Positions 37,227-51,596 of a DNA stretch of 64,000 nt are shown here, piece after piece. Position 1 is the first letter of the stretch, and every line of letters starts with the position of its first letter. The DNA is from a virus (lineage: Duplodnaviria; Caudoviricetes), in IMG/VR virus record IMGVR_UViG_3300029305_006500. The stretch is one strand, 5' to 3'. A model generated the notes under the pieces. It saw only the letters and a program-made list of their open reading frames with translations. It searched no databases and had not been told where the DNA came from. The position numbers were made by a program, and so were the translations under genes.

Positions 37227-37375
37227 AAGCGTTGACAGTCGCTTGTCATTACTGTTTGGTGGATACTCCCAACAATGAGTATGTAACGGCAGCGCGCAGG
37301 AAGTTATGCGAGCTAGGCGTCGGTGCTACAACGATGTGACACAAAACTTATGACATAGTATTGTAGCTTTTATAT

Positions 37376-37452
37376 TGTCCGGTAGCTCAGCTGGTTAGAT
37401 CGCGCGCCTGATAAGCGCGAGGTCGTGGGTTCGAGTCCCACCCGGACAACCA
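37376..37452 (+). tRNA. tRNA-Ile(GAU)
   Basis: Cloverleaf, CGCGC-CTGATAA-GCGCG, ACCA. Confidence 0.93.
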
Positions 37453-37636
37453 GCGCGGGGAGATAACTCTGTTGTTGTGCCAACTTCCTTTCAGGGTCGC
37501 GCCTGATAAATTAAATGTGAGTTCAACAAGGGTATATTTGCCGGACGCTTTGTGACCAAAGCATAAAGCGGCGATGATGCATCAGGGTTGGTAAACCTCT
37601 GTTCATAAAGTGCAGAAAGTTTCCAAAATTTTATAT

Positions 37637-37809
37637 GGAGTAGGTAGTGAAGTGGTCAAACACGCGGACTGTAACTCCGTGCTTTATTGTAATGTATAGT
37701 TAGCATGAAGGAACTCGCGACTCCGGATCTGGATGTTAACTACATTCGTGGGTTAGGCGCGCATGTGCCCCGTAAAGCTTCGCTGGTTCGAATCCAGCCC
37801 TCTCCACCA
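37637..37809 (+). tRNA. tRNA-Tyr(GUA) with about 100-nt variable arm
   Basis: GCGGA-CTGTAAC-TCCGT, V region 37681-37781, T arm, ACCA. Confidence 0.75.
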
Positions 37810-37818
37810 AATTTATAT

Positions 37819-37893
37819 GGGTAAGTAGCATTGTGGAATGCAGACGTTAAACGTCCCGCGGGAAGTATGGTTCGACTCCTACCTTATCCACCA
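37819..37893 (+). ncRNA. Pseudo-tRNA with collapsed anticodon loop
   Basis: GGGTAAG/CTTATCC-ACCA; GACGT-TAA-ACGTC. Confidence 0.5.
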
Positions 37894-37898
37894 AGTAT

Positions 37899-38002
37899 GA
37901 ATCAGTAAACTATAATGGCAAAGTGGGGTAATTGCCCATTCGGTTCGACTCCGATGAAAAGTTGTGGGAACGTTGTAAGTTCGATTCTTACCTGATTCAC
38001 CA
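37899..38002 (+). ncRNA. tRNA-like RNA with two T arms
   Basis: GAATCAG/CTGATTC-ACCA; extra T arm TCGG-TTCGACT-CCGA inside D loop. Confidence 0.55.
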
Positions 38003-38175
38003 TTAACCTTTATTGTTTTCAAATACTATAATGGATTTTTATTGTAGGTCTTCGTGCACAGAAGTACAAAAACAAAGAAACTCTGTATTAGTTGACTTTG
38101 CTGGTTGAAAGAAACTGGATGTTTGTACAGACAAGACGTTGGGTCAGCGTCTATAACTTTGTGCCCACGCTATAT

Positions 38176-38249
38176 TGCGCGGTTGGGTAACGGCAGCCCG
38201 CTGGACTTTGACTCCAGTTGTCCTAGTTCGAATCTAGGCCGCGCAGCCA
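38176..38249 (+). tRNA. tRNA-Gln(UUG)
   Basis: CTGGA-CTTTGAC-TCCAG, U1-A72, GCCA. Confidence 0.93.
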
Positions 38250-38253
38250 GTAT

Positions 38254-38327
38254 TGACCGTTAGCTTAATGGTAGAGCGTCCGGCTCTGACCCGGAATGCC
38301 GAGGTTCGATACCTTGACGGTCAGCCA
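38254..38327 (+). tRNA. tRNA-Gln(CUG)
   Basis: TCCGG-CTCTGAC-CCGGA, GCCA. Confidence 0.93.
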
Positions 38328-38441
38328 GCCCCAGAGTATGACTATCCTTCAACAGAAAACTGAAAACGTTAAGATTATAGGTACCTATAAGCTACGAGTA
38401 AAACAAAGAAGGAATACTTTAATAAAGTAGGTAATTAAATT

Positions 38442-38747
38442 ATGATTGAATGGGCAAAAGCACCTAGTATTGGGCACACTAAATTTGAATGGTACCAGGG
38501 GCTTCAGGATTTAATTTTAGAGATAACTGCTCTTAAAGGAACTAATTTAGTTTGTAAATGCTCAGGTGACACTGCTTCTATTATTGTATTTTTTACTGGG
38601 TTTGAAAAGAGCCCTATTTCTGAAATTTATAGAGAGTTTGAACTTGGTAAATCTTTTGGAATTACTTATATAATTACTCCAGATCTCAATCAGCAAATTA
38701 ATATAGAAGCTGATGGTAAAGTGTTTGAAATTATTAAAATTATTTAA
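38442..38747 (+). CDS. Hypothetical protein
   Basis: AT-rich ORF between tRNAs, weak RBS. Confidence 0.6.
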   Translation: MIEWAKAPSIGHTKFEWYQGLQDLILEITALKGTNLVCKCSGDTASIIVFFTGFEKSPISEIYREFELGKSFGITYIITPDLNQQINIEADGKVFEIIKII

Positions 38748-38803
38748 AATTTATACGCTAAATTAATTAGATTTGATTAAAATTTTAAGGAGAAAGAAAA
38801 GAA

Positions 38804-38908
38804 ATGTTTAATTTTGATTTTTGTAAATCGATAAAAACTATGCATAGCCTTGTTATGCCCTTTTCAGCATCCTTTAAGCCAGTAGGGCCATATCATATCC
38901 AGCGTTAA
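38804..38908 (+). CDS. 34-aa peptide
   Basis: GCTAAATT motif (38757), AAGGAG RBS, downstream hairpin plus T-tract. Confidence 0.4.
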   Translation: MFNFDFCKSIKTMHSLVMPFSASFKPVGPYHIQR

Positions 38909-39146
38909 TATTTTCGTAATATATTGAAGATAGTATTGGCGTTTGGAATTAGTTAGTAAACTTAGTTCTAAGCGTCAATTTTTATTTATAAAACTACGAA
39001 AAATACAAAGTATATCATCGTATAATATAAAGTAAAGGTTATAATATCGGTTAGATATATGCGGCTATATCTTTTGAATCTAAAACGCCCTTCGCCGAGG
39101 CGTCCAAGATACCGGTGTTCACCATAAGCAACACTGCGTTTAATAT

Positions 39147-39221
39147 GCACCCGTAACTCAGTGGTAGAGTATCTGACTTTTAATCAGAGAGTCGTGGATT
39201 CGAGTTCCACCGGGTGCACCA
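39147..39221 (+). tRNA. tRNA-Lys(UUU)
   Basis: TCTGA-CTTTTAA-TCAGA, ACCA. Confidence 0.93.
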
Positions 39222-39242
39222 GATTTAAAATGAGGTTTCACT

Positions 39243-39884
39243 ATGGCTTATATTTATGAAATTATTAATGACATAAATAATAAAAGTTATATAGGGAAGA
39301 CTGAATTTGCAATCGAGCGAAGGTTTAAAGAGCATTGTAAAGAAGCTTTTCGTAATCGTTGTGAAAAACGTCCTTTATATGCTGCAATGCGAAAGTACGG
39401 TATTGAACATTTTCATATTGAATTACTAGAAGAAACTGAGTTACCTGAAGAACGCGAAATATTTTGGATTGCAACTAAACAGACCTATAAGCAAGGCTAT
39501 AATGCTACTCTAGGTGGCGATGGTAAAAAATACTTAGACTATGACTTAGTGGTTACTACATATAAACAACTTGGTACCATTTCAGCTGTAGCTGACAGAC
39601 TTAATATCCACCGGGAAACTATTAGTAAAATTTTACGAATTAAGCAAATTGATGTGAAAACATCTTATGAGGTATTATTGGAAAAAACTGGAAAAGCTGT
39701 TGAACAATACTCACTTACAGGTGAATATATTGCAACCTTTCCGTCTACTTTAGCTGCTGTGAAAGCTTTAGGTAAAATGCAAAATAAACAAACAGATCGT
39801 GGTTCAGCTGGACATATTGCCGATGTCTGTAACGGTAAACGTAAGACTGCTTATGGTTATATTTGGTGCTATCAAACTATTTAG
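39243..39884 (+). CDS. GIY-YIG homing endonuclease with C-terminal NUMOD1-like DNA-binding domain
   Basis: AYIYEI...YIGKT...RFKEH...EREIFWI...GYNATLGGDG; VEQYSLTG...CNGKRKTAYGYIW. Confidence 0.9.
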   Translation: MAYIYEIINDINNKSYIGKTEFAIERRFKEHCKEAFRNRCEKRPLYAAMRKYGIEHFHIELLEETELPEEREIFWIATKQTYKQGYNATLGGDGKKYLDYDLVVTTYKQLGTISAVADRLNIHRETISKILRIKQIDVKTSYEVLLEKTGKAVEQYSLTGEYIATFPSTLAAVKALGKMQNKQTDRGSAGHIADVCNGKRKTAYGYIWCYQTI

Positions 39885-39893
39885 GAGTTAATA

Positions 39894-40076
39894 ATGAAAG
39901 TAAGATATATTTGTAAGCATTGTGCACATATAAATGAGATCACAAGTTTTTGGAAATGGTTTTGGGCGCCTCATCTTGGGGCAAAGAAACTATTAGAGTG
40001 TAGTCATTGTAAATTAACTAGCTATATGTATCGCCAAGATGGTCGTAAGTGGCTTGATTGGCCTAAAAATAAGTAA
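39894..40076 (+). CDS. Zn-ribbon protein
   Basis: CKHC...PHLG...CSHC; similar to C-terminus of 5654-5992. Confidence 0.65.
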   Translation: MKVRYICKHCAHINEITSFWKWFWAPHLGAKKLLECSHCKLTSYMYRQDGRKWLDWPKNK

Positions 40077-40095
40077 ACAGTATTCTCTGCTTTAT

Positions 40096-40179
40096 GCTCC
40101 GGTGGCGAAACGGCAGACGCGGTAGGCTCAAACCCTATTGTAGCAATACATATGAGTTCAAATCTCATCTGGAGCACCA
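40096..40179 (+). tRNA. tRNA-Leu(CAA)
   Basis: GTAGG-CTCAAAC-CCTAT, long V arm, ACCA. Confidence 0.9.
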
Positions 40180-40232
40180 ATCTCCTTTACATATACTTGC
40201 TCTAAAGTATATGTGAAATAGGAGATATCTCA

Positions 40233-40586
40233 ATGGGACAAAAAACAAGATTAACTGCAGCTATTATTGAGCGAGTTTGGTCTTTATACGAATCTGGCTG
40301 GCAAGCAACTGATATTGCTAAAAAATTAAAAATCAGTAATGTTTCAGTACAACGTTGTATTTTCGCGTTAACTACTGCTAAATCAGGCAAAAAAGTAGAA
40401 TATGAAGGTCTTTTAAGAGATAGCCATCATATCGCCGATTATGCTAATGAACAATTTAAGCAGGAAATAACAGAAGGAACAAGCAATAAAGATATTGAAC
40501 TTGCCGCCGCAATTAATAGACTTGCAGACAAAATTGAACAACAAACACAATTATTTGAAAGCTTTATAAGAAAGCTTGAAAGATAA
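40233..40586 (+). CDS. HTH DNA-binding protein
   Basis: LYESGWQATDIAKKLKISNVSVQR helix-turn-helix. Confidence 0.75.
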   Translation: MGQKTRLTAAIIERVWSLYESGWQATDIAKKLKISNVSVQRCIFALTTAKSGKKVEYEGLLRDSHHIADYANEQFKQEITEGTSNKDIELAAAINRLADKIEQQTQLFESFIRKLER

Positions 40587-40667
40587 TTCTTTGGGAGCAT
40601 ATCAGTAGAAAGGATTTTAAGTGGGATATGCAGCGTCCAGCTTGGAGGGGAGCGTTTGGACTAATGT

Positions 40668-40755
40668 GGAGGATTAAGCATAATTGGCACTGCCGCGGTC
40701 CTGAAAACCGTTCACGTGAGAGCGTGTGGGAGTTCGAGTCTCTCATCCTCCGCCA
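40668..40755 (+). tRNA. tRNA-Ser(UGA), C33
   Basis: GCGGT-CCTGAAA-ACCGT, long V arm, GCCA. Confidence 0.88.
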
Positions 40756-40874
40756 GATTGCTAGAGCTGTTCGTTCTAGTTCGTACAGCTTAATAGATGG
40801 ACCAACGGAAATGCTAAAGGACGGCTTTCCTTGCCGAGCATTTGACGCCTGAATCTAGCCTTTTAATTTAATAT

Positions 40875-40951
40875 GGCGGACGTAGCTCAGTTGGTAGAGC
40901 GTCAGATTGTGGCTCTGAGTGTCGCGGATTCGAATTCCGTCGTTCGCCCCA
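40875..40951 (+). tRNA. tRNA-His(GUG) with encoded G-1
   Basis: TCAGA-TTGTGGC-TCTGA, G-1:C73, CCA. Confidence 0.93.
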
Positions 40952-41013
40952 GAATTTATGAAAGAGAGGTATTCATTATGCAACTATAGTAATCTTTAAT
41001 TAAAGGAGCTATT

Positions 41014-41397
41014 ATGCAAATGAATAATAAACACAAGTATTTCAGAAATCTTCGTTATAAGCAAAAACTTGAAGCCAGATATGATAACTGGTGTGAACGT
41101 CACACTGGAATTTATTTTACTACCGAAGAGCCTGATCCTAGAAATATTAGAGAGCATCAGCATGCTAGATGGTTTAGAAATGAAAAGTTTCTTGGACATG
41201 ACTGGTATCTTTGTTGGCAGCGTCCTGAAGTACCTTACAGTATTAGGGAGTATACTTATCATACCAGTAGCTGGAAAAAAGTTATGAAACAGCAGACTTC
41301 TAGACGTAATCGTCGTATTAAAATTACGGAAGATGATACTGCAGCAAGAGAAAAAAGTTTTTATAAAAAAGTAGAAGATATTTGGAATTACGACTAA
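41014..41397 (+). CDS. Basic hypothetical protein
   Basis: AAGGAG RBS, Arg/Lys-rich. Confidence 0.7.
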   Translation: MQMNNKHKYFRNLRYKQKLEARYDNWCERHTGIYFTTEEPDPRNIREHQHARWFRNEKFLGHDWYLCWQRPEVPYSIREYTYHTSSWKKVMKQQTSRRNRRIKITEDDTAAREKSFYKKVEDIWNYD

Positions 41398-41417
41398 CAA
41401 ATATTGTATAATATAAT

Positions 41418-41799
41418 AAGCTGAATAGTGAGTAAAAATCCATTCTTAGTATGCTTTCGAGTACAAACTATTTCAATAGAGTTCCGTACAAGCTCTGAAA
41501 TGGTGAAAGCAGGAACCTGTGCAAAGATGGTGTAAGGGTAGCACGCTGGCCGTTTGTGGCCGGAGGAAAGGTTCGAATCCTTTGAGCATACCCAAAAGAA
41601 AAGTTCCTTAAAAATACTGCGAATGAAAAAGATGTGCCCACAAACTAGACTTACTACTTATTAGTGTGTTGTGTGTATAAAAGTAGTCCTTTAGTCTGGG
41701 AGTAAAAATGGATTGAAGATTAATAAGCAACTTTTCCTTGACGGTGCGCAACGTTTTGGAAACGCATCTCCTACATCTGAAACTGATGTGGTTCAGCTT
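41418..41799 (+). ncRNA. About 380-nt structured RNA with embedded tRNA-like domain (41520-41594)
   Basis: Starts at promoter 41404-41417; AAGCTGAAT/GTTCAGCTT ends; nested AATCCATT/AATGGATT and AGGAAC/GTTCCT. Confidence 0.6.
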
Positions 41800-41810
41800 G
41801 TTTTATATTT

Positions 41811-41886
41811 CGCTCTGTAACTCAGTTGGTAGAGTAGCGGACTCATATCCCGCATGTCAGAGGTTCAATTCCTCTCGGAGCGACCA
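41811..41886 (+). tRNA. tRNA-Met(CAU)
   Basis: Loop CTCATAT, cloverleaf, ACCA; subtype uncertain. Confidence 0.8.
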
Positions 41887-42039
41887 AAAATTAGGTACTC
41901 TAAATCCTATGTAATTCTTGTGGCTAGTGTGGTGTAGTTAAAGTACCGTTCGAGTCGGTTGTCAAACATAGGGAGCTTATTTAGACTACATGAATGAGTA
42001 AGCAGTATTTAATTAATTTAATATAAGTGAGGTAAGTTT

Positions 42040-42330
42040 ATGAGTAGAACTAGAGCTTATACACGTAAAATGAGAGCAAAGCATATTAAACGTAAAAAGC
42101 GAATTGTTTCTAATTGGCGCTGGTATGGTGAGCATGAATTTTACCATCACGATGGAATGTTTTCAAAAAATAAGATTCATTGTTCTTGTAGAATGTGTAG
42201 ATCAAAAGATTATAATGGCCGACATATACCTACTATGCAGGAAAAGCGTCATGGTATTGGTCTGAAATATTCTACATTAACTAATGATATTAACGCGGGT
42301 TTGGCGGAATTGGCAGACGCGTCAGCTTGA
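42040..42330 (+). CDS. Basic Zn-binding hypothetical protein
   Basis: GAGG RBS; SKNKIHCSCRMC motif; 3' end overlaps tRNA-Leu. Confidence 0.7.
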   Translation: MSRTRAYTRKMRAKHIKRKKRIVSNWRWYGEHEFYHHDGMFSKNKIHCSCRMCRSKDYNGRHIPTMQEKRHGIGLKYSTLTNDINAGLAELADASA

Positions 42331-42381
42331 GGAGCTGATGGGAGCAATCTTGTGAAGGTTCAAGTCCTTTAATCCGCACCA
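42295..42381 (+). tRNA. tRNA-Leu(GAG)
   Basis: TCAGC-TTGAGGA-GCTGA, long V arm, ACCA. Confidence 0.9.
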
Positions 42382-42649
42382 TAAGCACCGATTGGCCCCT
42401 GCAGCAGCAGATATAACTGTTAATATTAAGAGCATATAGCAGCACAAAGTATTATCTGCGGTGCGCCAAGAAAGAGTAGTCTCTAGCCAAGACAAAATGG
42501 GTAGCTTTATTTTATAGTGAAAATCGGATAATACTATAAAAAAATTTTTAATTTGCCTAACGACCGGAAAAACAGACCTAGGAATAATCCGGCGTCCCGC
42601 CATCAAATTGGGATGATGAGTAGAGTGGTTTGTTACTTTAGGCAGCCAT

Positions 42650-42725
42650 GCAGGATTAGTGTCAGTGGCTAGCACGTCAGTCTTCCAAACTGAAAGGGCC
42701 AGTTCGAATCTGGTATCTTGCTCCA
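42650..42725 (+). tRNA. tRNA-Gly(UCC)
   Basis: TCAGT-CTTCCAA-ACTGA, U73 CCA. Confidence 0.92.
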
Positions 42726-42729
42726 ATAT

Positions 42730-42806
42730 GGTAACATACTCAAGTGGCTTAAGAGGGCGCTCTGCAAAAGCGTTATTCATTGGTTCGAATCCAATTGTTA
42801 CCTCCA
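42730..42806 (+). tRNA. tRNA-Cys(GCA)
   Basis: GCGCT-CTGCAAA-AGCGT, U73 CCA. Confidence 0.92.
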
Positions 42807-42939
42807 ACTGCTCTTAAGGCACAGCCATTAACCTTAGGAAAAAACTGGGAGAAGCAATCGGCAAGGATGGATACGTCTGGTTGTGGTAAGAGGGTAAAAC
42901 ATCTACCAGGTTCAGCTTCAGGTACCTCTTATATTTTAT

Positions 42940-43016
42940 GCGGGTTTAGCTCAGTTGGGATGAGCATCTGCCCTACAAGCAGGGGGTCGGCGGTTCGATC
43001 CCGTCAACCCGCACCA
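42940..43016 (+). tRNA. tRNA-Val(UAC), C33
   Basis: TCTGC-CCTACAA-GCAGG, ACCA. Confidence 0.88.
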
Positions 43017-43021
43017 TATTT

Positions 43022-43095
43022 GCAGTATTAGTTTAGTGGTAAAACAACAGCATGGCAAGCTGTTGTCACGAGTTCGACTCTCGTATATTGCTCCA
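43022..43095 (+). tRNA. tRNA with GGC (Ala) anticodon on a Gly-type body
   Basis: ACAGC-ATGGCAA-GCTGT; U73, A3-U70. Confidence 0.8.
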
Positions 43096-43536
43096 GACCG
43101 GTTCGGTTTATACTAGTTTTTGTCGAATAACAAAGCCGGCCCAAAAGTTACGGGCCCTCGTGCGCGAAAGGATGCTCCTCGGAGAGGTTGCAAACTCAAA
43201 GAGTTAGAAAGGTACATAGTCCGCCGGTTGCCACGTCAGTTGTTCATTAGGCGCGCCTCGAAGGCGATAGAGGCTAATTAAAATTCACCCAACCAGGCAG
43301 CAAGATAATGTAAGAACAATACAAAAAGGCTTAGGCTGCCAATAATCTTGCATTCTAGGTATACCTAGACTCTGAGCTGACATGTGATCCTCAGCTAATG
43401 TCAATTGGGACAAGACTGCCGATGAAGACCTTTACTTTGTAGCAAAAGCGAAGGGGTTAGGGCATGCACGGGGTTTGTAAGTAGAACCACAAGGCTACTA
43501 GACGAAAGTCGAAAAGAAAAACTTACATCTTAATAA

Positions 43537-43614
43537 CGGGATGTGGCTCAGTTTGGCTAGAGCACGTGATTTGGGATCACGGGGCCGCAGGTTCGAATCC
43601 TGTCATCCCGACCA
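43537..43614 (+). tRNA. tRNA-Pro(UGG)
   Basis: CGTGA-TTTGGGA-TCACG, C1-G72, ACCA. Confidence 0.94.
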
Positions 43615-43617
43615 TAT

Positions 43618-43696
43618 GCCTGGGTAGCTTACTTGCGGTCTAAGCACCGGTCTGAAAAACCGGAGTGTGGTGGTTCGACTCCACTCCCAGGCACCA
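43618..43696 (+). tRNA. tRNA-Phe(GAA)
   Basis: CCGGT-CTGAAAA-ACCGG, ACCA. Confidence 0.9.
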
Positions 43697-43703
43697 ATAT
43701 TTT

Positions 43704-43779
43704 CCTCCTTGTCCTCGACGGTTTTGAGGACGTGCCTTATAAGCGCGCACACGAAGTTCAACTCTTCGGGGGAGGACCA
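43704..43779 (+). tRNA. tRNA-Ile(UAU), divergent
   Basis: CGTGC-CTTATAA-GCGCG, ACCA; atypical D arm. Confidence 0.75.
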
Positions 43780-43782
43780 ATC

Positions 43783-43859
43783 GGACTATTAGCTCAGTTG
43801 GTTAGAGCTACCGGCTCATAACCGGTCGGTCCAAGGTTCGAATCCTTGATGGTCCACCA
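43783..43859 (+). tRNA. tRNA-Ile2/Met(CAU)
   Basis: ACCGG-CTCATAA-CCGGT; body resembles Bacillota lysidine tRNA-Ile2. Confidence 0.88.
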
Positions 43860-43946
43860 TAAATTTTATGTAAATGTTTCTGCTAAATTATAATAGCGGA
43901 GACATTTTACTTCGTTTAAAACTTTAATTCTATGAGAGGTATAAAT

Positions 43947-44561
43947 ATGGCAGAATTCTGTAAAGAATGCTTTTTGACTAAACTTGAGCCTGGAATGAAC
44001 CCAGATAATCTAGTTATGAGTGAAGAAGCAGATTTATGCGAGGGCTGTGGTGAACAGAAGCCTATTGTTCTGGAAGTAAAAGAAGATGTGCCAAAGCTTA
44101 CTATTGCTGAATGCCAAGTTGAAACTCAAAAACATATTGAGAATGTAAGAAAATATATCAGATTTATGATTGATAAAATTGATATGAGAGGTGTAAAACA
44201 TGATGCCTCTAAGCTAGAATCTCCTGAGGTTGAGGTTTTTGCAGAGTATACTCCTAAGCTTAATAATACTACTTTTGGAAGTGACGAATATTATCATAAT
44301 CTTGAACAGATGAAGGGCGCACTTGATCATCATTATGCGTCTAATCGTCACCATCCTGAACATTTCGTTAATGGTATTAACGATATGACGCTCATTGACA
44401 TTTTAGAGATGTTTTGCGATTGGAAAGCTAGCACATTGAGACACAATGATGGCAACCTATTGAAAAGCATCGAGACGAACGCTGAACGTTTTAATATGGA
44501 CGGACAGCTGAAACAAATACTTATTAACACAGCTCGTATGATAGATGAGCATGAGGATTAA
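43947..44561 (+). CDS. DUF5662-like HD-related protein with N-terminal Zn finger
   Basis: CKEC...CEGC; HDASK...DHHY..NRHHPEHF..GINDM...EMFCDW. Confidence 0.8.
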   Translation: MAEFCKECFLTKLEPGMNPDNLVMSEEADLCEGCGEQKPIVLEVKEDVPKLTIAECQVETQKHIENVRKYIRFMIDKIDMRGVKHDASKLESPEVEVFAEYTPKLNNTTFGSDEYYHNLEQMKGALDHHYASNRHHPEHFVNGINDMTLIDILEMFCDWKASTLRHNDGNLLKSIETNAERFNMDGQLKQILINTARMIDEHED

Positions 44562-44576
44562 ATCTTCATGCCATAT

Positions 44577-44652
44577 GCTGGCATAGCACAGTCGGTAGTG
44601 CACTTGCTTGGTAAGCAAGAGGTCCCCAGTTCAAGTCTGGGTGTCAGCTCCA
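44577..44652 (+). tRNA. tRNA-Thr(GGU)
   Basis: CTTGC-TTGGTAA-GCAAG, TCCA. Confidence 0.92.
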
Positions 44653-44976
44653 AGGTTTATCCGTAGCCAAGAATAAACGGTTGTCGCAAGAGAAGAGGGA
44701 AAACAGCGGCATAAAAGAAGTATCACCAAACCTCGTAAATGACTGGTAGTGAAAGTCTGTTATAAGCTTTACGAGTGAGTCCAAACGCCTTGATAGCAAG
44801 ACTGGGGTTGAATGCAAGTAGACATTTTTTAATGTAGTACGCTAAAAGCTATCTGAAATACCTCTGGCAAATACTTAAAATTATATAATTCTATGCTGTA
44901 TATTATATTGAGGTTTGTGTTAAAAGCATTCGCCTCAATATTTTTATTATTTAAGGAGAAGTATTTTTACTATTAT

Positions 44977-45792
44977 ATGAAGGTATCAGAACGTAAATTT
45001 ACAAATCTAGTATCACCTATTGACGTAAGAGATTACCGTATTGCTGCTGTTTCAGAATTTCCTGAAACTTTCGAGCTTCCTGCTGTATCTGTCAAAGATC
45101 AAGGAGAGACAGGTAGCTGCGTAGCACATGCTTGTTCTTCAGTTGTTGAATATCATAATAAAAAGCAGCAGGGAACTAATACAATTTTTAGTACCGAGTT
45201 TATTTATGGTTATCGTCCTATTGGTTATTACGTAGGTGAAGGCATGTATATCAGAGATGCCCTTAAAACTATTACCAAGCTAGGCGATTGTCCTCTTAAT
45301 AATTTTAGAGGCAACCATGAATACAAAGAAGCTATGTCAAATGTAGCTGAACAGTTTGATGTTCTTGCAGACAAAGCTTATCCTCATAGAATTTCTTCTT
45401 ACGCTAAAGTAAAGACTGTTGAAGAGATTAAAACTGCACTCATGAATTATGGCTATGTAGTTGTATCTATGAATTGGTACAAGGACTATAAACTGAAAAA
45501 AGGTGTCTATACCTATACCTCAAATGAGACTTCTGGTAGACACTGCGTGGTAATCTATGGCTGGGACGAAAGAGGTTGGTTAGTCCATAACAGCTGGGGT
45601 TATAATTGGGGCCAGAAGGGAAAATTTGTAGTTCCTTTTGATTTTAAGTGGAATGAAGCTTGGGCAGTTATTGATAATATTGTAAATGAAGGCGATGTTG
45701 TAAGACCTGCTGAGAAATGGTATGTAAAATTGTTTGGAAATATTCTAAATAAAATTGCAAATTTCTTTAGAAAGCTCTTTAAAAAGATTTAA
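44977..45792 (+). CDS. Papain-like cysteine peptidase (C1 family)
   Basis: KDQGETGSCVAH, GRHCVVIYGWD, HNSWGYNWGQKG. Confidence 0.92.
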   Translation: MKVSERKFTNLVSPIDVRDYRIAAVSEFPETFELPAVSVKDQGETGSCVAHACSSVVEYHNKKQQGTNTIFSTEFIYGYRPIGYYVGEGMYIRDALKTITKLGDCPLNNFRGNHEYKEAMSNVAEQFDVLADKAYPHRISSYAKVKTVEEIKTALMNYGYVVVSMNWYKDYKLKKGVYTYTSNETSGRHCVVIYGWDERGWLVHNSWGYNWGQKGKFVVPFDFKWNEAWAVIDNIVNEGDVVRPAEKWYVKLFGNILNKIANFFRKLFKKI

Positions 45793-45845
45793 CTGCACGC
45801 TGTATAATATAATGTAAAATATATTTTGAAAGTGAGATTCTAAAA

Positions 45846-45986
45846 ATGACAGCAGAACAGATTAAGCAGAAAATTAAGTTTATTGATATCAGAATTAATA
45901 CTTTAAAAACAAAGGGCGAAACTAAAAATGCTGCTCTTATTAATAAGCAGCTTCGTAAGCGTAGAGCTCTTGAGGCACAGCTTTAA
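45846..45986 (+). CDS. Small basic protein (46 aa)
   Basis: Follows class-1 promoter 45800-45813; TAATG-coupled to next gene. Confidence 0.6.
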   Translation: MTAEQIKQKIKFIDIRINTLKTKGETKNAALINKQLRKRRALEAQL

Positions 45987-46237
45987 TGGCACCTCAGCAA
46001 TGGGCAGCTGTTATTATATTCTTTGCATTTATTTTGATTTTTCCATGCGTTATTGAAGGTGCAGAATGGAAAGTTTGTTTTGATAAGAAAAAAGAATATA
46101 AACTATTATCGCCTGCTACTTTAAAGCGTGGCACTGAAATGAATTGGGTTGGTTGTATACTTACTTGGGTAGCTCTTGGCATTGTATCGCCTTGCATGTT
46201 CATTTATAAGTGCATTTATAATTTATTTCATATATAA
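45986..46237 (+). CDS. Small membrane protein
   Basis: Two TM segments. Confidence 0.7.
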   Translation: MAPQQWAAVIIFFAFILIFPCVIEGAEWKVCFDKKKEYKLLSPATLKRGTEMNWVGCILTWVALGIVSPCMFIYKCIYNLFHI

Positions 46238-46238
46238 G

Positions 46239-46428
46239 ATTAGGTCGATCAGCTAAGAGATTAAACCTCTATGGACTCTTAACTCTCCACCTATGTTATG
46301 ATAAAACACTGTTATTGCAGTTCGATTCTGCGCTCAGAGGGTCATTCTCGCCGCGTTAATCAGGTTAAAAACGGGAGGGGATATGGTTCGATTCCATTAG
46401 GGTATGAGGTAAATAACAGAAACCTGAT
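46239..46428 (+). ncRNA. Structured RNA with two T-loops
   Basis: GCAG-TTCGATT-CTGC and ATGG-TTCGATT-CCAT inside CTGTTATT/AATAACAG. Confidence 0.45.
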
Positions 46429-46515
46429 ATTTTTAAAAATTTGATTGGATTTTTATGCTAAATTATCTGATTGTGCATTAAAAATCCTTCAGGTTTATTG
46501 TATAATATAAAGTAT

Positions 46516-46606
46516 GGAGGAGTACTCAAGCTGGTTAAGAGGACGCACTGCTAACGCGTTAGACCGGTAATACGGTACGTGGGTTCGAGCCCCACCTCCT
46601 CCGCCA
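46516..46606 (+). tRNA. tRNA-Ser(GCU)
   Basis: Loop CTGCTAA, long V arm, GCCA. Confidence 0.92.
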
Positions 46607-46609
46607 AAG

Positions 46610-46729
46610 GCACTTGAAAGGTCTGGTTCAAATCCATAAGCATCGTGGTGATGCGCTTTAGCCCCTGAGAGCAGCTAAGGAGAGAACGTTCAATTCGGCT
46701 GGTGTAATCTGGAAGCATAGTCAAGTGGC
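46610..46729 (+). ncRNA. Permuted tRNA-like RNA (T arm before D arm)
   Basis: CACTTGA/TCAAGTG closing stem; TGG-TTCAAAT-CCA then GTGTAATCTGGAAGCAT. Confidence 0.45.
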
Positions 46730-46762
46730 TCTCATTTAAACTAATTTGGAGATATTTGCTTT

Positions 46763-47164
46763 ATGATTTTTAATACTAATAAGGATAAGGGACGAGCTGG
46801 TATGGCTTTAGCTATCGCTTATTTTGGGAGTAATGGTTATACTGTAAATATTCCTATGAATGATACGCAATGGTATGATTTAGTACTTGAAAAAGATGGT
46901 ATATTTCAAACCGTTCAATGTAAGGCGACTGGTAATACTGACAAAACTATCTATTTAAGAAGTATGGGTGGTAGTGCTGGAAAAGTATAGGATAATGTTT
47001 TGAATCATCCTGTAGATTTATTATTTTGTTTAGATGATGAACAAAATATGTATGTTATCCCGATAGCTAAAATCAGAGCGGCAGGTAATAATACATCAAT
47101 CACGCTTAGTACAAAAGCTCGCCCACAAGGGTTAAACACTGCTGAGTATCTAGTTAAAATTTAA
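46763..47164 (+). pseudogene. PD-(D/E)XK endonuclease (group I intron-associated type) with in-frame TAG
   Basis: KGRAG...PMNDTQWYDLV...VQCK; TAG 46988-46990 then 57 more codons DNVLNHPVDLLFCL...YVIP. Confidence 0.8.
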
Positions 47165-47167
47165 TTT

Positions 47168-47250
47168 GGGAGAGTAGCGAATCGGCAAACGCGGCGGTCT
47201 GTAAAATCGTTCTTTCGGGGTAATGGGGTCGGCACCCATCTCTCCCACCA
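47168..47250 (+). tRNA. tRNA-Tyr(GUA)
   Basis: GCGGT-CTGTAAA-ATCGT, ACCA; atypical T loop. Confidence 0.82.
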
Positions 47251-47263
47251 ATAAATAAAATAT

Positions 47264-47339
47264 GGGCCCGTAGCTCAATTGGGAGAGCACTAGTCCTGCA
47301 AACTAGAGGTCGTCGGTTCGACTCCGATCGGGTCCACCA
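47264..47339 (+). tRNA. tRNA-Ala(UGC), C33
   Basis: G3:U70, CTAGT-CCTGCAA-ACTAG, ACCA. Confidence 0.9.
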
Positions 47340-47443
47340 GAAAAAATACGCCATAGTTAATGGTTCAAATTCTGCTAGCAAATAAACAATAGAAGTCCCG
47401 CAAGGTGAAAGCGTGCCAATAGGATGTTCGGCGTATAATTTTC

Positions 47444-47572
47444 AGTATCTCAATGATAGCTCAAAAGGTTATGGAAATTATGAATGGTATAAGCTTAATT
47501 TCTAGAGGTCCGGTAGGCTAGAGCATTGGACAATAATCCAAAGATATAGGTGCGAGGCCTGTTAGAGATACT
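47444..47572 (+). ncRNA. Degenerate tRNA-like RNA with D-loop insertion
   Basis: AGTATCTC/GAGATACT; TAGCTC...GAGC split by about 55 nt; TTGGA/TCCAA arm. Confidence 0.4.
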
Positions 47573-47765
47573 TTATAGGAAATAGCTGATGTGTAAAGCA
47601 TCTAGTCAAAGCTCTCTTGACGATAAATTAAGACTATCGGATTTACCGACCCTCTGGGGCAAGGTCGAGAGAAAGTGTGCGGAGTGCGGCACTAAGGGAA
47701 GTAGCTATAATCCTCTCGGACGCAGGATTATCCCAGGCAATTATTGCATAGTGGCGCTCAAATAT

Positions 47766-47849
47766 GCGGAAGTGACGGAATAGGCAGACGTTCCAGCCTT
47801 AGAAGCTGGTGCCATTGGCGTATGGGTTCAAGTCCCTTCTTCCGCACCA
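47766..47849 (+). tRNA. tRNA-Leu(UAG)
   Basis: CCAGC-CTTAGAA-GCTGG, long V arm, ACCA. Confidence 0.9.
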
Positions 47850-47872
47850 AAGTAAAATTTAGGAGTTTAATT

Positions 47873-48028
47873 ATGGCAAAGCGTATTATTGAAAATGGAA
47901 AGTATAATGTAATTACTTGTTCCGAATGCGGTTGCAAGTTTGCATTTGATAAAACTGATATTGAAACTGATGGTACTGTAACTTGTCCTCAGTGCGATAA
48001 AGCAAATACTCCTACTGTTAAAAAGTAA
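47873..48028 (+). CDS. Zn-ribbon protein (51 aa)
   Basis: AGGAG RBS; CSECGCKF...CPQC. Confidence 0.75.
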   Translation: MAKRIIENGKYNVITCSECGCKFAFDKTDIETDGTVTCPQCDKANTPTVKK

Positions 48029-48049
48029 TTAAATATATCGTATATTTTA

Positions 48050-48177
48050 TTAGGTGCCACGAAGCAGGCAAGTGCATTTACCGATAGAGGGAGCTAGTCA
48101 TAAGTACTAGAGGGTCCAACTGTGCATAGCCTTGAATACCAGCAGCTGTGGTAAATGGAGTGAGATGAACAGCCTAA
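48050..48177 (+). ncRNA. Scaffold RNA family II, copy 6
   Basis: TTAGG-TGCCACGAAGC...GCTGTGGTAAATGGAGTGAGATGAACAG-CCTAA. Confidence 0.75.
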
Positions 48178-48235
48178 CGTTCTGAGAGGAAGCGATAACA
48201 GAGTAACGTAAAACTTAACACTTCCACTTTTATAT

Positions 48236-48318
48236 GCCCTTATGGTGTAATTTTTTGGTTAACACAGCTGACTGTCACTCAGCAGACGTGGTGGGTTCGA
48301 GTCCCCCTGGGGGCGCCA
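48236..48318 (+). tRNA. tRNA-Asp(GUC)
   Basis: GCTGA-CTGTCAC-TCAGC, GCCA; enlarged D loop and V region. Confidence 0.85.
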
Positions 48319-48603
48319 ATATGCCGTTTGAAACAAATATGTCGTTGGGTCAGAGATAATATTTAGCTAGCTTTTAAGTATTATCGTAACGAAATGTGTA
48401 GTTGAGTGACTTTAAGCTCGCCATTAATTAAAAATATTATTGGTCGCTGTGGTATGAACACAGACGCTGTCTCAGGTCGTAGCAGCGGAGCAAGGACGCG
48501 GTGAACTGACGACGAATGTCACCAGTCTAAATTAGCGGGGAGCAGAAGCTTGTGTAAAGTGGTGAGTTTTAGCGAATAATTCCACGCCAATTATATTATA
48601 TAT

Positions 48604-48790
48604 CGTGAGGATAGACGAAGCATCGAGTCGGGTCTCTTATCATATGAGGCTGACAACGCTAGAAGTAAGTCTGAAAGTATCAGCTGTAGAATAAGAAACT
48701 GCTTCTTGAAGTGAAAAATAGGTGATGTACTTCGGTACCATGTATCTAGTAGCAAGTTATAAGTAGGTTTAAGTCCTACCTTCACAACCA
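48604..48790 (+). ncRNA. Initiator-tRNA-like RNA with about 100-nt variable-region insertion
   Basis: C1:A72 mismatch, CAT in an enlarged loop, GTAGG/CCTAC T stem, ACCA. Confidence 0.55.
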
Positions 48791-48797
48791 TTTATAT

Positions 48798-48948
48798 TCC
48801 TCGGTAGCTCAGCTGGTAGAGCAACAGACTGGTCCGAATAGTTCAGTTGAGAGAACCGCCGGCGTAAGCAGGCTAGACGTGAGTTTGAGTCTCACTTTGG
48901 GCACCATTAATCTGTGGGTCACAGGTTCGAGACCTGTCCGAGGAGCCA
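48798..48948 (+). tRNA. tRNA-Asn(GUU) interrupted by a nested tRNA-like unit
   Basis: 48798-48831 plus 48907-48948 give ACAGA-CTGTTAA-TCTGT, U1-A72, GCCA. Confidence 0.85.
48832..48906 (+). ncRNA. Nested 75-nt tRNA-like element
   Basis: GTCCGAA/TTTGGGC-A-CCA, D arm GTTC/GAAC, T arm GTGAG/CTCAC, GNRA-capped anticodon arm. Confidence 0.8.
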
Positions 48949-49076
48949 CTGGTTTCACTTATATAGTGATATAATTGCGCAGACTAAGAAATACCAGAGC
49001 AGCGACGGCGAGATAACCGTGAGTAAACTCCCTTTCGTTTATTACTTTTGAACTGGCATGATTGTAAAAGTAATAT

Positions 49077-49152
49077 GCTCGGTTAGTCAAGTTGGCCAAG
49101 ACGCCGGCCCTTCAAGCCGGAGGCAGGAGTTCGAATCTCCTACCGAGTACCA
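49077..49152 (+). tRNA. tRNA-Glu(UUC), C33
   Basis: CCGGC-CCTTCAA-GCCGG, ACCA. Confidence 0.85.
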
Positions 49153-49330
49153 GGCTGCCGTGGATTGCCGACCCCTTAATGGCCACGGGTGGGGATAGGT
49201 TGGTAAACCGACTATGGTAAGCATAGAAAAGTTTCCAAAGTATCGACGGAATAAAGACATGGGTTGAAATCCCACATCGCCGCTATGGCGTGATAGTTTA
49301 GGTTGCGAGAATATTATTGAAGATACTAGG

Positions 49331-49470
49331 TAGGTGCTACGAAGCCACAAATCGTTACATTTAGGTGTTGATTGTAAAAACGCGGTCATTGTTTATACCG
49401 GTATAAACCTCTGATGGGAAACGAGACGGATAAAAGAAGCAGTAGTAAATGGAATTAGATAAACAGCCTA
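49331..49470 (+). ncRNA. Scaffold RNA family II, copy 7
   Basis: TAGG-TGCTACGAAGC...GCAGTAGTAAATGGAATTAGATAAACAG-CCTA. Confidence 0.75.
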
Positions 49471-49524
49471 AATTTTTTTTTAAATTAAATAAAATTTTAA
49501 AAATTATATTGTATAATATAATAA

Positions 49525-50402
49525 CGGGCCTGACCGATAACTTCCCGTAAGGGAATGAAAGGAGTATACTGACAAGACTCCGCTGTGATGAGCAGTACCT
49601 CAGGCAATGTGTGACGGGACCTGTAAGAATTGAAAAGATTCTTACGAATATGCTAACCCCATGTTCTAACTTGTCAATGATGAAATGAATGAGATTAGTT
49701 GAGGGCCAACTGGTTGAACTAATTTCTGCTCTCGCAAGGAGCTGGTTTCAATGCAAAAGGATTTGATGAGGTAAGGTAAGCTACAGGAAGTAAAATAGTT
49801 CAAGTTTTAGCAAGCAAGGGCGACTTCCATTTATATCTGCTATGGTGGATATAAGAAATACAAGTACGAAGCCAAGGAAAGTATTGAAGGCGGGTAGCAT
49901 TCTTGCACTCAAAAGGTGTGAGAACTACAACAATAGTCTGTCTTCCGTCAAATCTCAACTTAGCGTGGGTTCGAGCCCCACCCGGCGTGCCAATTTTATC
50001 TTATAGAGATAATTAGCACTTATCTCTTGCATACGCCGGTAGCTCAGTAGGCAGAGCGGTTGTCATAGGAAAACAATGTCATGAGTAAAAACCTATTGTT
50101 GGAAACAAAGAAAAGTGTCTTAAGCCCAGAGTGGTAAGCAATCTGGGATATTAGGTGTCACAAGCATCTAGTATTTGATTGAAACGAATCTATAGAGGCG
50201 TAGCAACCTCGAACAGCCCGCAAGGTTGATAGTGGAGTGATAATCGAGTAATTGTTTCTGTAAAGGCGAAAGCAAGCCTGGAGCCCTTGTGCTGGGGTGA
50301 CGAATTGCAGGCATGAGCGGTACTTCCCAAAAGGAAGTGGAAAAGTGACTAAAAAATAAGGTCATTAAGCCGTAGCAATCATAAGATGTATTCTCAGTCT
50401 TT
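49525..50402 (+). ncRNA. GOLLD-like large RNA (about 880 nt)
   Basis: Starts at promoter 49509-49522; 5' CTGA pairs with 3' TCAG; many GNRA/GCAA hairpins, two CAAAAGG loops; size and phage-tRNA context fit GOLLD (from memory). Confidence 0.65.
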
Positions 50403-50483
50403 TAATCTTCTTACCATATATACTAATTGTCTGAAAGGATGCTGTTAAGACAGGGATATAGCCCCTGTCAATTAGTATTTTAT

Positions 50484-50559
50484 GCTCCATTCTTCTAGTT
50501 GGCCAGGAAGTAAGATTCTCAATCTTAAAACAGGTGTTCGAACCACCTATGGAGTACCA
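50484..50559 (+). tRNA. tRNA-Glu(CUC)
   Basis: TAAGA-TTCTCAA-TCTTA, ACCA. Confidence 0.88.
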
Positions 50560-50568
50560 TTTATATTT

Positions 50569-50643
50569 GCGCGGTTAGTTTAATGGACAGAACGCGTGGC
50601 TACGGACCATGAGATATGGGTTCGATTCCTATACTGCGTGCCA
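50569..50643 (+). tRNA. tRNA-Arg(ACG)
   Basis: CGTGG-CTACGGA-CCATG, GCCA. Confidence 0.9.
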
Positions 50644-50646
50644 CAT

Positions 50647-50722
50647 ACACTTTTAGCTCAGCTGGAAGAGCGGCCCTCTCCTAAAGGGCAGGTCGTTGGT
50701 TCAAGTCCAATAAGGTGTGCCA
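50647..50722 (+). tRNA. tRNA-Arg(CCU)
   Basis: GCCCT-CTCCTAA-AGGGC, GCCA. Confidence 0.9.
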
Positions 50723-50726
50723 ATAT

Positions 50727-50803
50727 GCGTCCTTAGCTCAGCGTATAGTAGCAACGGTTTTCTAAACCGTAGGTCCTAGGTTAGAATCCTAGAGGGCGTG
50801 CCA
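50727..50803 (+). tRNA. tRNA-Arg(UCU)
   Basis: ACGGT-TTTCTAA-ACCGT, GCCA; atypical D and T loops. Confidence 0.82.
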
Positions 50804-50906
50804 AAGATGCTGGCGTTTTAGGTAAAAAGTGTGAATGCTAGGAACTTTGGGTGTATAGTTTTCTAACCCTCCGAGTCAGCATCTTATTCTTTTTAAGGAG
50901 TTTATT

Positions 50907-51119
50907 ATGAAAGTTTATGAAGTAGAATTTCATTATGGAAGAAATACTTATGAATTTCTGTCAGACCTTGATCTTGAAGTAGGTAAAACTTATAGACTTA
51001 CTAATGATTTAGGACATACATATAAAAGTAGAGCGATTATTTTAGATAAAAAAGATGTTTCCGTATTCTCTGGTACAATGCGAGAAATTGTAGATGCTGA
51101 TGAGGAAATGCCATGGTAA
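50907..51119 (+). CDS. Hypothetical protein
   Basis: AAGGAG RBS. Confidence 0.7.
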   Translation: MKVYEVEFHYGRNTYEFLSDLDLEVGKTYRLTNDLGHTYKSRAIILDKKDVSVFSGTMREIVDADEEMPW

Positions 51120-51156
51120 GTGATTAAAATATAAAAAATATATTGTATAATAAAAT

Positions 51157-51432
51157 AGAGCCAATACTTATTTCTTAGATATTTTGGGTATATATTTTAA
51201 AAGTTTGGCCAAATATTATGCTAAATAAAATAGAGCTTGTGCTTATTTCGTACATATTATAGAAAATTTTAAAAAGGGTATAGCCAAGCCAAATTATTTA
51301 AACGTAGAGCTTATGCTTATTTCTTAATGCAGGTGCCGACATGTCGGCAGAAAAATCAGCTAAGCCTTATATAGAGTCTATGCTTATTTCTTTTGACTTA
51401 AATTATATAATAGATAGTGTGATAGCTAGACC
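51157..51432 (+). repeat. Tandem array of four minimal Y-like family I RNAs (51157-51210, 51232-51290, 51306-51366, 51373-51432)
   Basis: AGA-N5-T-RCT-TATTTC...AGY-N5' with compensatory changes; promoter at 51143-51156. Confidence 0.8.
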
Positions 51433-51444
51433 ATAATTTAATAC

Positions 51445-51519
51445 TGCGGAGTGGAGCAGTCTGGTAGCTCGTCGGCCTCATAAGCCGAAGGTCGTTGGTT
51501 CGAATCCAACCTCTCGCGT
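51445..51519 (+). tRNA. tRNA-fMet-like (CAU), 3' end degenerate
   Basis: TGGAGCAGTCTGGTAGCTCG D arm, TCGGC-CTCATAA-GCCGA; no encoded CCA. Confidence 0.75.
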
Positions 51520-51521
51520 CC

Positions 51522-51596
51522 GCTGGCATGGCGCAATGGTAGCGCACCTCACTTGTAATGAGGTGGTTGTGGGTTCGACTCCCTCTGCCAGCTCCA
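51522..51596 (+). tRNA. tRNA-Thr(UGU)
   Basis: CCTCA-CTTGTAA-TGAGG, TCCA. Confidence 0.92.

Follow-up and report, generated by a model that had tools for sequence, protein, structure and literature searches.

A circularly permuted, tRNA-shaped module in the variable linker of a phage GOLLD RNA

What is a tRNA shape with its two halves in reverse order doing in the middle of a giant phage RNA? The question is raised by a locus in a stretch of 64,000 nucleotides (the window) taken from a virus record of 146.5 kb that is estimated to be 63% complete. A sequence-only reading had described this locus as a GOLLD-like RNA carrying a circularly permuted, CCA-ending tRNA, and had proposed that the spacer between the tRNA halves is removed as in two-piece tmRNAs, leaving a giant RNA in two pieces with a chargeable end. 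Known since 2009, GOLLD RNAs still lack a function, although work of 2024-25 showed that they assemble into cages, which are 12- to 14-mers; the cages are known for the env-38 and S. agalactiae GOLLD RNAs, whereas the clade found in the window is known from sequence alone. In the GOLLD papers tRNAs or a pseudo-tRNA are sometimes found in the variable linker (J13/15), and this linker faces the interior of the cage (10.1101/2024.12.08.627333). The published linker tRNAs are described as being of ordinary order, whereas here the order is permuted, a structured spacer joins the two acceptor strands and the CCA is internal. In our literature search, the coverage of which did not extend to Weinberg 2009 and Morgado 2020, GOLLD was never paired with a permuted tRNA, a tRNA-like domain or YrlA.

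A GOLLD RNA within the tRNA array of a large phage

A search with the Rfam GOLLD covariance model (RF02032, cmscan) gave a match above the gathering score at 49885-50400 on the + strand (155.3 bits against a gathering score of 150, E 1.4e-41) covering the full model (positions 1-416), which bears out the GOLLD-like identity that had been read from the sequence. About 100 surplus bases appear in the cmscan alignment as an insertion within the variable linker of the model. Upstream of this insertion lies the last hairpin of the 5' domain (49885-49946, +; model positions 1-62), with which the Rfam model starts, and downstream of it the 3' domain (50099-50400, +), which aligns to RF02032 with its pseudoknot strands and terminal hairpins and includes the hallmark hairpin TACTTCC-CAAAA-GGAAGTGGA (50320-50340, +) present in all of the GOLLD RNAs that we recovered. 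The last Rfam hairpin covaries in the kin of the window, GAU/GUC being replaced by GGU/GCC with both sides changed. The whole RNA, consisting of 5' domain, linker with the tRNA module and 3' domain, is about 880 nt long (49524-50402, +) and is conserved from end to end in its relatives, with 93% identity across its length in the close ones (alignment A1). Its ends at 49524 and 50402 are inferred from a promoter-like motif and from the last Rfam hairpin, respectively.

The promoter-like motif, TTGTATAATATAATA (49509-49523, +), lies directly upstream of the GOLLD RNA and is conserved in its kin. With up to two mismatches allowed it is found 13 times in the window against 1.3 expected, with exact copies at 35017, 41404 and 49509, and it is probably the promoter consensus of the phage. 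The sites, which include 6276, 23969, 35017, 41404, 49509 and 51143 (+), are often directly 5' of RNA genes.

As in published GOLLD RNAs, a conserved 3' domain is combined with a variable 5' domain and a variable linker in the setting of a phage tRNA array: ARAGORN called 29 tRNA genes, which lie at 37-52 kb of the window on both sides of the GOLLD RNA. The locus is thus shown to be one GOLLD RNA of about 880 nt belonging to a large phage. Also within the tRNA array are a match to the 'drum' RNA (RF02958) at 43417-43529 (+; 42.2 bits against a cut-off of 43), a gene for a papain-family cysteine protease (44893-45792, +) and a DUF5662 gene (43932-44561, +). Pfam searches of the eight proteins neighbouring the GOLLD RNA gave nothing related to tRNA, and a BLAST search of 49400-50500 against deposited phages gave no match.

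The permuted tRNA-shaped module and its point of attachment

Read along the + strand the linker holds, in this order, a variable loop, T arm, acceptor 3' strand, N73-CCA, spacer, acceptor 5' strand, D arm and anticodon-like arm. The variable loop TTAGC (49960-49964), the last base of which (49964) corresponds to N48 and keeps the 15:48 pair, is followed by the T arm GTGGG-TTCGAGC-CCCAC (49965-49981; 5-bp stem and 7-nt loop), the acceptor 3' strand CCGGCGT (49982-88), the discriminator G (49989) and CCA (49990-92). A spacer of 40 nt (49993-50032), which contains an 8-bp hairpin stem (50005-12/50020-27) with its loop at 50013-19, leads to the acceptor 5' strand ACGCCGG (50033-39) and the invariant U8 and A9 (the unit ending at 50041), the D arm GCTC-AGTAGGCA-GAGC (50042-50057) and an anticodon-like arm with the stem GTTGT/ACAAT and the 9-nt loop CATAGGAAA (50059-50077). 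The coordinates previously given for the 3' part ending in GCCA at 49992, for the 40-nt spacer with its hairpin and for the 5' part from 50033 are read directly from the letters, and the perfect 7-bp acceptor stem claimed with them is indeed formed by all seven pairs of 49982-88 with 50033-39. The permuted cloverleaf is the minimum-energy fold of 49940-50080, although with a z of only -1.88, and the two parts of the module on their own gain -13.9 kcal/mol by cofolding. In place, the module is not called as a tRNA by ARAGORN or by the Rfam tRNA model RF00005; once the halves had been put into normal order in silico, ARAGORN called a tRNA in each of the 12 versions tested.

Relatives were pulled from viral and metagenome contigs by means of the hallmark TACTTCC...GGAAGTGGA and the matches were checked with the Rfam GOLLD model; two additional search patterns were used, one of which demands neither T arm nor CCA. 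The family amounts to about 20 contigs, and the module set to 15 distinct versions from 12 viral and 7 metagenome contigs, aligned as A3 with about 71% column identity. The permuted modules always lie about 375 nt upstream of the hallmark and within a GOLLD match. Five other GOLLD types recovered in the same way have no permuted module, and an exact 25-mer spanning T arm to CCA had no match in viral contigs. A loose pattern (T arm, NCCA, spacer, GTAGCTCA) run on bacterial genomes matched almost exclusively tandem copies of one tRNA gene and found no host for the module clade there.

In alignment A3 the acceptor stem is 100% paired in all 15 homologues with six of its seven pairs changed on both sides, in nine different stem sequences, the T stem is likewise 100% paired and the D stem is invariant. 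Two tertiary pairs are never broken: 15:48 is G:C in seven sequences and A:U in eight, and the elbow contact 19:56 is G:C in 11 and C:G in four, the C:G version going with the D loop AGUGCUA and the T loop UUGGAAU. G18:U55 and U8, A14, A21, U54 and A58 are invariant across the 15 sequences. The covariation of the structure as a whole was reached by none of 500 shuffles, and sliding the partners by one to three columns lowers pairing to 34-53%. Because it is this comparison among homologues, rather than folding energy, that supports the module, we regard it as more than a chance pattern. Reading of the sequence and covariation agree that the variable linker holds a tRNA-shaped module that is circularly permuted and ends in CCA, as had been proposed, and we are very nearly certain that this module is real and tRNA-shaped. 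As the universal tRNA core is kept, the predicted structure should fold into an L shape.

Some related contigs depart from this layout. In the metagenome contig L137 (1994-2281, -) module and 3' domain are those of the family, but the 440 nt or so upstream are unrelated to the 5' domains of the others. The switch falls right at the variable loop, and on this comparison the 5' domain may have been exchanged where it borders on the module. A module model built here found permuted modules with a 7-bp acceptor and NCCA at 42-53 bits in two viral contigs (L172:3870-3974, 1831-1940 and L203:1584-1710) in which no GOLLD match was found; the design is therefore not confined to GOLLD. L131 (in the linker part of its GOLLD match), L122 and L124 are without a permuted module and seem, as judged by eye, to have acceptor-less tRNA-like pieces of ordinary order in which an anticodon-arm-like hairpin is followed by a T-arm-like hairpin; ARAGORN made no call on them.

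The point at which the module is attached differs from that first proposed, in which an anticodon stem opened into the large RNA. The long-range stem that this calls for, CAAC (49956-59) with GTTG (50059-62), is paired in only 71% of alignment cells, fails throughout the more distant group and is ruled out on covariation. The local stem GTTGT (50059-63)/ACAAT (50073-77), by comparison, is 98.7% paired in A3 with four of its five pairs changed on both sides, occurs also as GCTGT/ACAGT, GTTGC/GCAAT, ACATC/GATGT, ATATC/GATAT and ATCTG/CAGAT (the first of these double changes being found within the closest kin of the window), and was predicted independently by RNAalifold. Its loop is 9 nt in most members and 11-13 nt in two and varies in sequence, in place of the 7-nt loop with a conserved anticodon that marks a tRNA. 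The chain enters the module just before the variable loop and leaves it just after the anticodon-like arm, and the local arm taken together with these entry and exit points therefore puts the break in the chain at tRNA position 43/44. Position 43/44 is the site of the long extra arm in class II tRNAs and the only place at which natural tRNAs tolerate one. On this comparison the module is shown to be tied in at the variable-arm position, with the two domains of GOLLD connected to it between tRNA positions 43 and 44, an attachment that leaves the acceptor end, the elbow and the anticodon-like arm free.

Entry and exit are predicted to be held together by a closing helix between 49953-49961 and 50078-50086 (+), for which several registers are available and of which the entry strand may be CUCA or ACUU. 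RNAalifold places ACUU/RAGU in 14 of 15 sequences with zero double changes, the distant group has TTAAC/GTTAA or ATAAC/GTTAT instead, and the energy model favours CUCA/UGAG. The register 49955-59/50078-82 was rejected, being 68% paired and holding in the more distant group only.

Acceptor-end signals, the spacer and known tRNA mimics

The acceptor end has the marks of a precursor tRNA. N73-CCA is present in all 15 versions although the neighbouring stem changes freely, the stem is always exactly 7 bp and the acceptor 5' strand is preceded by AU in every case. Each determinant of a pre-tRNA-like RNase P substrate is found in 15 of 15: the 7-bp acceptor is stacked on a T stem of 5 bp, -1 is U, N73-CCA is present, the elbow is intact and the leader is single-stranded. 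Among the phage's own tRNA genes CCA is encoded in 28 of 29, U is at -1 in 23 and AU at -2/-1 in 19, and as the flanks of the module match those of these genes they resemble the flanks of real pre-tRNAs of the same array. Most of the phage tRNA genes (37065-51596) have a short leader ending in (A/T)TAT or ATAT; the sole one without encoded CCA is a Met tRNA gene (51445-51521) that abuts the next tRNA with zero spacer. By analogy with tRNA and with M. smegmatis YrlA the predicted RNase P site is between 50032 and 50033 (+).

That the CCA end would be chargeable, as had been suggested, finds no positive support. G3:U70 is absent (the window has G:C at 3:70), as are G-1 and a conserved anticodon-independent identity set, and the first pair and the discriminator differ between lineages, switching together between A1:U72 with G73 and G1:C72 with C73.

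The spacer, which ranges from 16 to 45 nt in the family, had been taken for a throw-away piece, and here too the comparison points elsewhere. The seven pairs of its hairpin that were counted (50006-12/50020-26) are 96% paired in A3, with all seven changed on both sides. The hairpin is absent from four lineages with spacers of 16-18 nt, in which the acceptor-end signals are all kept. The loop of the hairpin ends in GCAC (50016-50019, +), for which a hairpin of the 3' domain (50280-50298, +) offers the candidate partner GUGC (50289-92) in its loop. In a whole-RNA alignment of 964 columns no site but 50289-92 complements the spacer loop in 10 or more of 12 sequences; nine have GCAC/GUGC and two CCAC/GUGG, so that this candidate loop-loop contact rests on one compensatory event. 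With a covarying hairpin and a covarying partner loop, the spacer therefore looks like a working part and not like waste. No sigma-70-like promoter or terminator was found on its + strand, which makes two separate transcripts unlikely.

Of the known RNAs the closest to this module is the tRNA mimic of YrlA RNAs, which have been likened to circularly permuted tRNAs whose acceptor stems are closed (10.1101/312249). The YrlA model (RF02553) aligns its tRNA-like part (model positions 23-85) to 49957-50061 with 27.5 bits (E 2.8e-4 in a 181-nt search), a score far below the gathering score of 69. The two share the order of variable loop, T arm, acceptor and D arm, the conserved loops of the D and T arms, the pyrimidine with which the variable loop ends, the UA after the acceptor and the tRNA tertiary contacts. 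The YrlA of M. smegmatis, the sole member with a 7-bp acceptor and in this respect the form nearest to the module, is cut by RNase P in vitro and in vivo, bears CCA and is in two pieces (PMC4201824; 10.1101/312249). The differences are nevertheless several. YrlA exits via the anticodon stem into a Ro60-binding stem and is without an anticodon arm, whereas the GOLLD module has its own anticodon-like arm and exits at the variable arm, in line with the pairing values of the long-range and local stems given above (71% vs 98.7%). CCA is encoded in the module but added in YrlA, the spacer of 16-45 nt with its hairpin takes the place of a 3-nt loop and, unlike YrlA, the module sits inside an RNA of about 880 nt. 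We conclude that it works like a YrlA tRNA mimic, yet is not a YrlA, and that a GOLLD RNA with a permuted tRNA module combines two known kinds of arrangement, the linker tRNAs of GOLLD and YrlA-type mimics. A search for a Ro60 (TROVE) gene found none in the record (63% complete), nor in relatives of which three are at least 95% complete and two partial, and a host-encoded copy is possible; RtcB and a CCA-adding enzyme were likewise not found in the record. Two small YrlA-like RNAs do lie in tandem elsewhere in the window (35030-35175 and 35195-35315, +); against the cut-off of 69 they score below threshold, at 32.3 and 34.8 bits. Both possess a T arm, an acceptor hairpin that is closed and a D arm, they are framed by a shared terminal stem (AGAGCCAATGCTTATTTCT...TTAGCTTGG) and they are preceded by the same promoter-like motif TTGTATAATATAATA as the GOLLD RNA.

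Two other known arrangements are comparable. In two-piece tmRNA the gene is likewise permuted, with an acceptor 3' strand and CCA before the 5' strand. The piece in between is processed, and pairing keeps the two RNA chains together. Unlike two-piece tmRNA the GOLLD module lacks G3:U70 and has a full D arm and an anticodon-like arm; the two-piece tmRNA model RF04321 gave no match in 49930-50110 at E up to 10, and there was no ARAGORN tmRNA call. The permuted tRNA genes of Cyanidioschyzon and some archaea also have the 3' half upstream of the 5' half and a spacer joining the acceptor strands, the acceptor being opened by RNase P or RNase Z (10.1101/312249). Genes of the Cyanidioschyzon type, however, yield working tRNAs via a circular intermediate, whereas the GOLLD module is flanked by functional GOLLD domains and its loop is not a decoding anticodon loop.

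Possible fates of the module and what they would mean

The best explanation overall, to which we give an even chance, is a nicked, two-piece GOLLD RNA in which a pre-tRNA-like module serves as a handle. The module would be treated as a pre-tRNA and be cut by RNase P between 50032 and 50033, and for this nick in vivo, by analogy with RNase P substrates, the balance tips slightly in favour. The 3' side may then be trimmed back towards the CCA at 49992, although a free CCA end there is somewhat less than an even prospect, and aminoacylation of such an end appears improbable. The cut would neither release a tRNA nor separate the domains, the nicked halves being held by the 7-bp acceptor stem, the tRNA core, the closing helix and contacts between the domains, and the spacer hairpin would probably dock on the 3' domain, at least in the precursor. 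Because the published cage geometry puts the linker inside, a 12- or 14-mer cage would hold as many tRNA-like acceptor ends in its interior. Their likely role would be that of a handle for a general tRNA-binding factor, such as a processing, modification or end-recognizing enzyme, rather than one in decoding. Against processing, a docked hairpin could shield the 3' trailer and keep the CCA from becoming a free end, and a module buried in a closed cage could be accessible to RNase P only before assembly.

The main rival is a tRNA mimic that is never cut, in which a covalently closed acceptor stem is capped by the spacer hairpin docked on the 3' domain and which acts as a rigid connector or as a binding site for a factor recognizing elbow or acceptor, without cleavage. 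The covariation of all seven counted pairs of the spacer hairpin and the unique, covarying complement of its loop at 50289-92 fit such a structure well, and so does the precedent that the majority of YrlA RNAs are closed and uncut. It also accords with the finding that for the pseudo-tRNA inside the mycobacterial GOLLD a separate tRNA product was undetected (PMC6582537) and with the proposal that the cage hinders maturation of embedded tRNAs (review PMC12990946). In an uncut mimic, however, there is no evident reason for 15 of 15 versions to keep exactly 7 bp, N73-CCA and an AU leader, the YrlA consensus differs in having 6 bp, a 3-nt loop and no CCA, and the four lineages without the hairpin retain every cleavage signal. 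We consider the uncut mimic possible but on the doubtful side.

The remaining alternatives are much weaker. Complete removal of the spacer and aminoacylation of the exposed CCA end, as in two-piece tmRNA, which establishes the principle, would make sense of the conserved NCCA and the 7-bp acceptor, and Chen et al. raise the possibility that cleaved YrlA is charged (PMC4201824). This reading is at odds with the absence of G3:U70, G-1 and a conserved identity set, with a first pair and discriminator that switch between lineages, with a variable anticodon-like loop of 9 nt, with a region that has no tmRNA match and with a spacer that looks functional, and we hold it to be unlikely. That the locus encodes a working tRNA in permuted form, after the fashion of Cyanidioschyzon, its flanks being excised, the ends ligated via a circular intermediate and the acceptor then opened, is hardly credible: the 3' half does precede the 5' half, the acceptor strands match and the un-permuted sequence is called as a tRNA, but the flanks are two conserved GOLLD domains, the 9-nt loop has no conserved anticodon, there is no RtcB ligase in the record (63% complete) and the splicing endonucleases of the pathway are unreported in bacteria (10.1101/312249). 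A functionless relic of two tandem tRNA genes, or a chance match, is just as remote. Tandem identical tRNA genes do yield the same pattern of T arm, CCA, spacer and matching 5' strand and account for most pattern matches in bacterial genomes, and a tandem-tRNA origin has been proposed for YrlA (10.1101/312249), but the missing halves are not found nearby and the 29 tRNAs of the phage include no parent (the best has about 64% identity). It is above all covariation that disfavours the reading as relic or chance, as every stem that varies, and two tertiary pairs besides, show compensatory changes among 15 sequences of about 71% column identity.

Attachment via the variable-arm position adds a third to the ways in which a tRNA shape is built into a larger RNA. 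The finding also links two phage RNA themes that were previously separate, YrlA-type tRNA mimics and cage RNAs, and YrlA-like RNAs share the window with the GOLLD RNA described here. A tRNA mimic in the linker points to the tRNA-handling machinery as the place in which to seek partners of GOLLD. More speculatively, and in our view with a low probability, the GOLLD cage may be a carrier of tRNA acceptor ends: nicked and trimmed, its 12-14 protomers would expose free CCA ends in the interior that capture or titrate enzymes acting on the 3' end or elbow of tRNA, and the cage would be a phage decoy or depot. If this were true the candidate targets would be anti-phage toxins of the host by which tRNA acceptor ends are cut or extended, the CCA-adding enzyme or a charging synthetase, and the giant RNA would protect the tRNA pool supplied by the phage's own tRNA array. 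The preferred reading, a nicked two-piece GOLLD with a tRNA-like handle, makes predictions of its own in the form of RNA ends at 50033 and at 49992 or 50032, together with the candidate contact between spacer and shell. In this clade the linker, which faces the interior, consists of a tRNA mimic that is strictly conserved and has both cleavage signals and a CCA end, and as such it offers a testable handle on the function of GOLLD.
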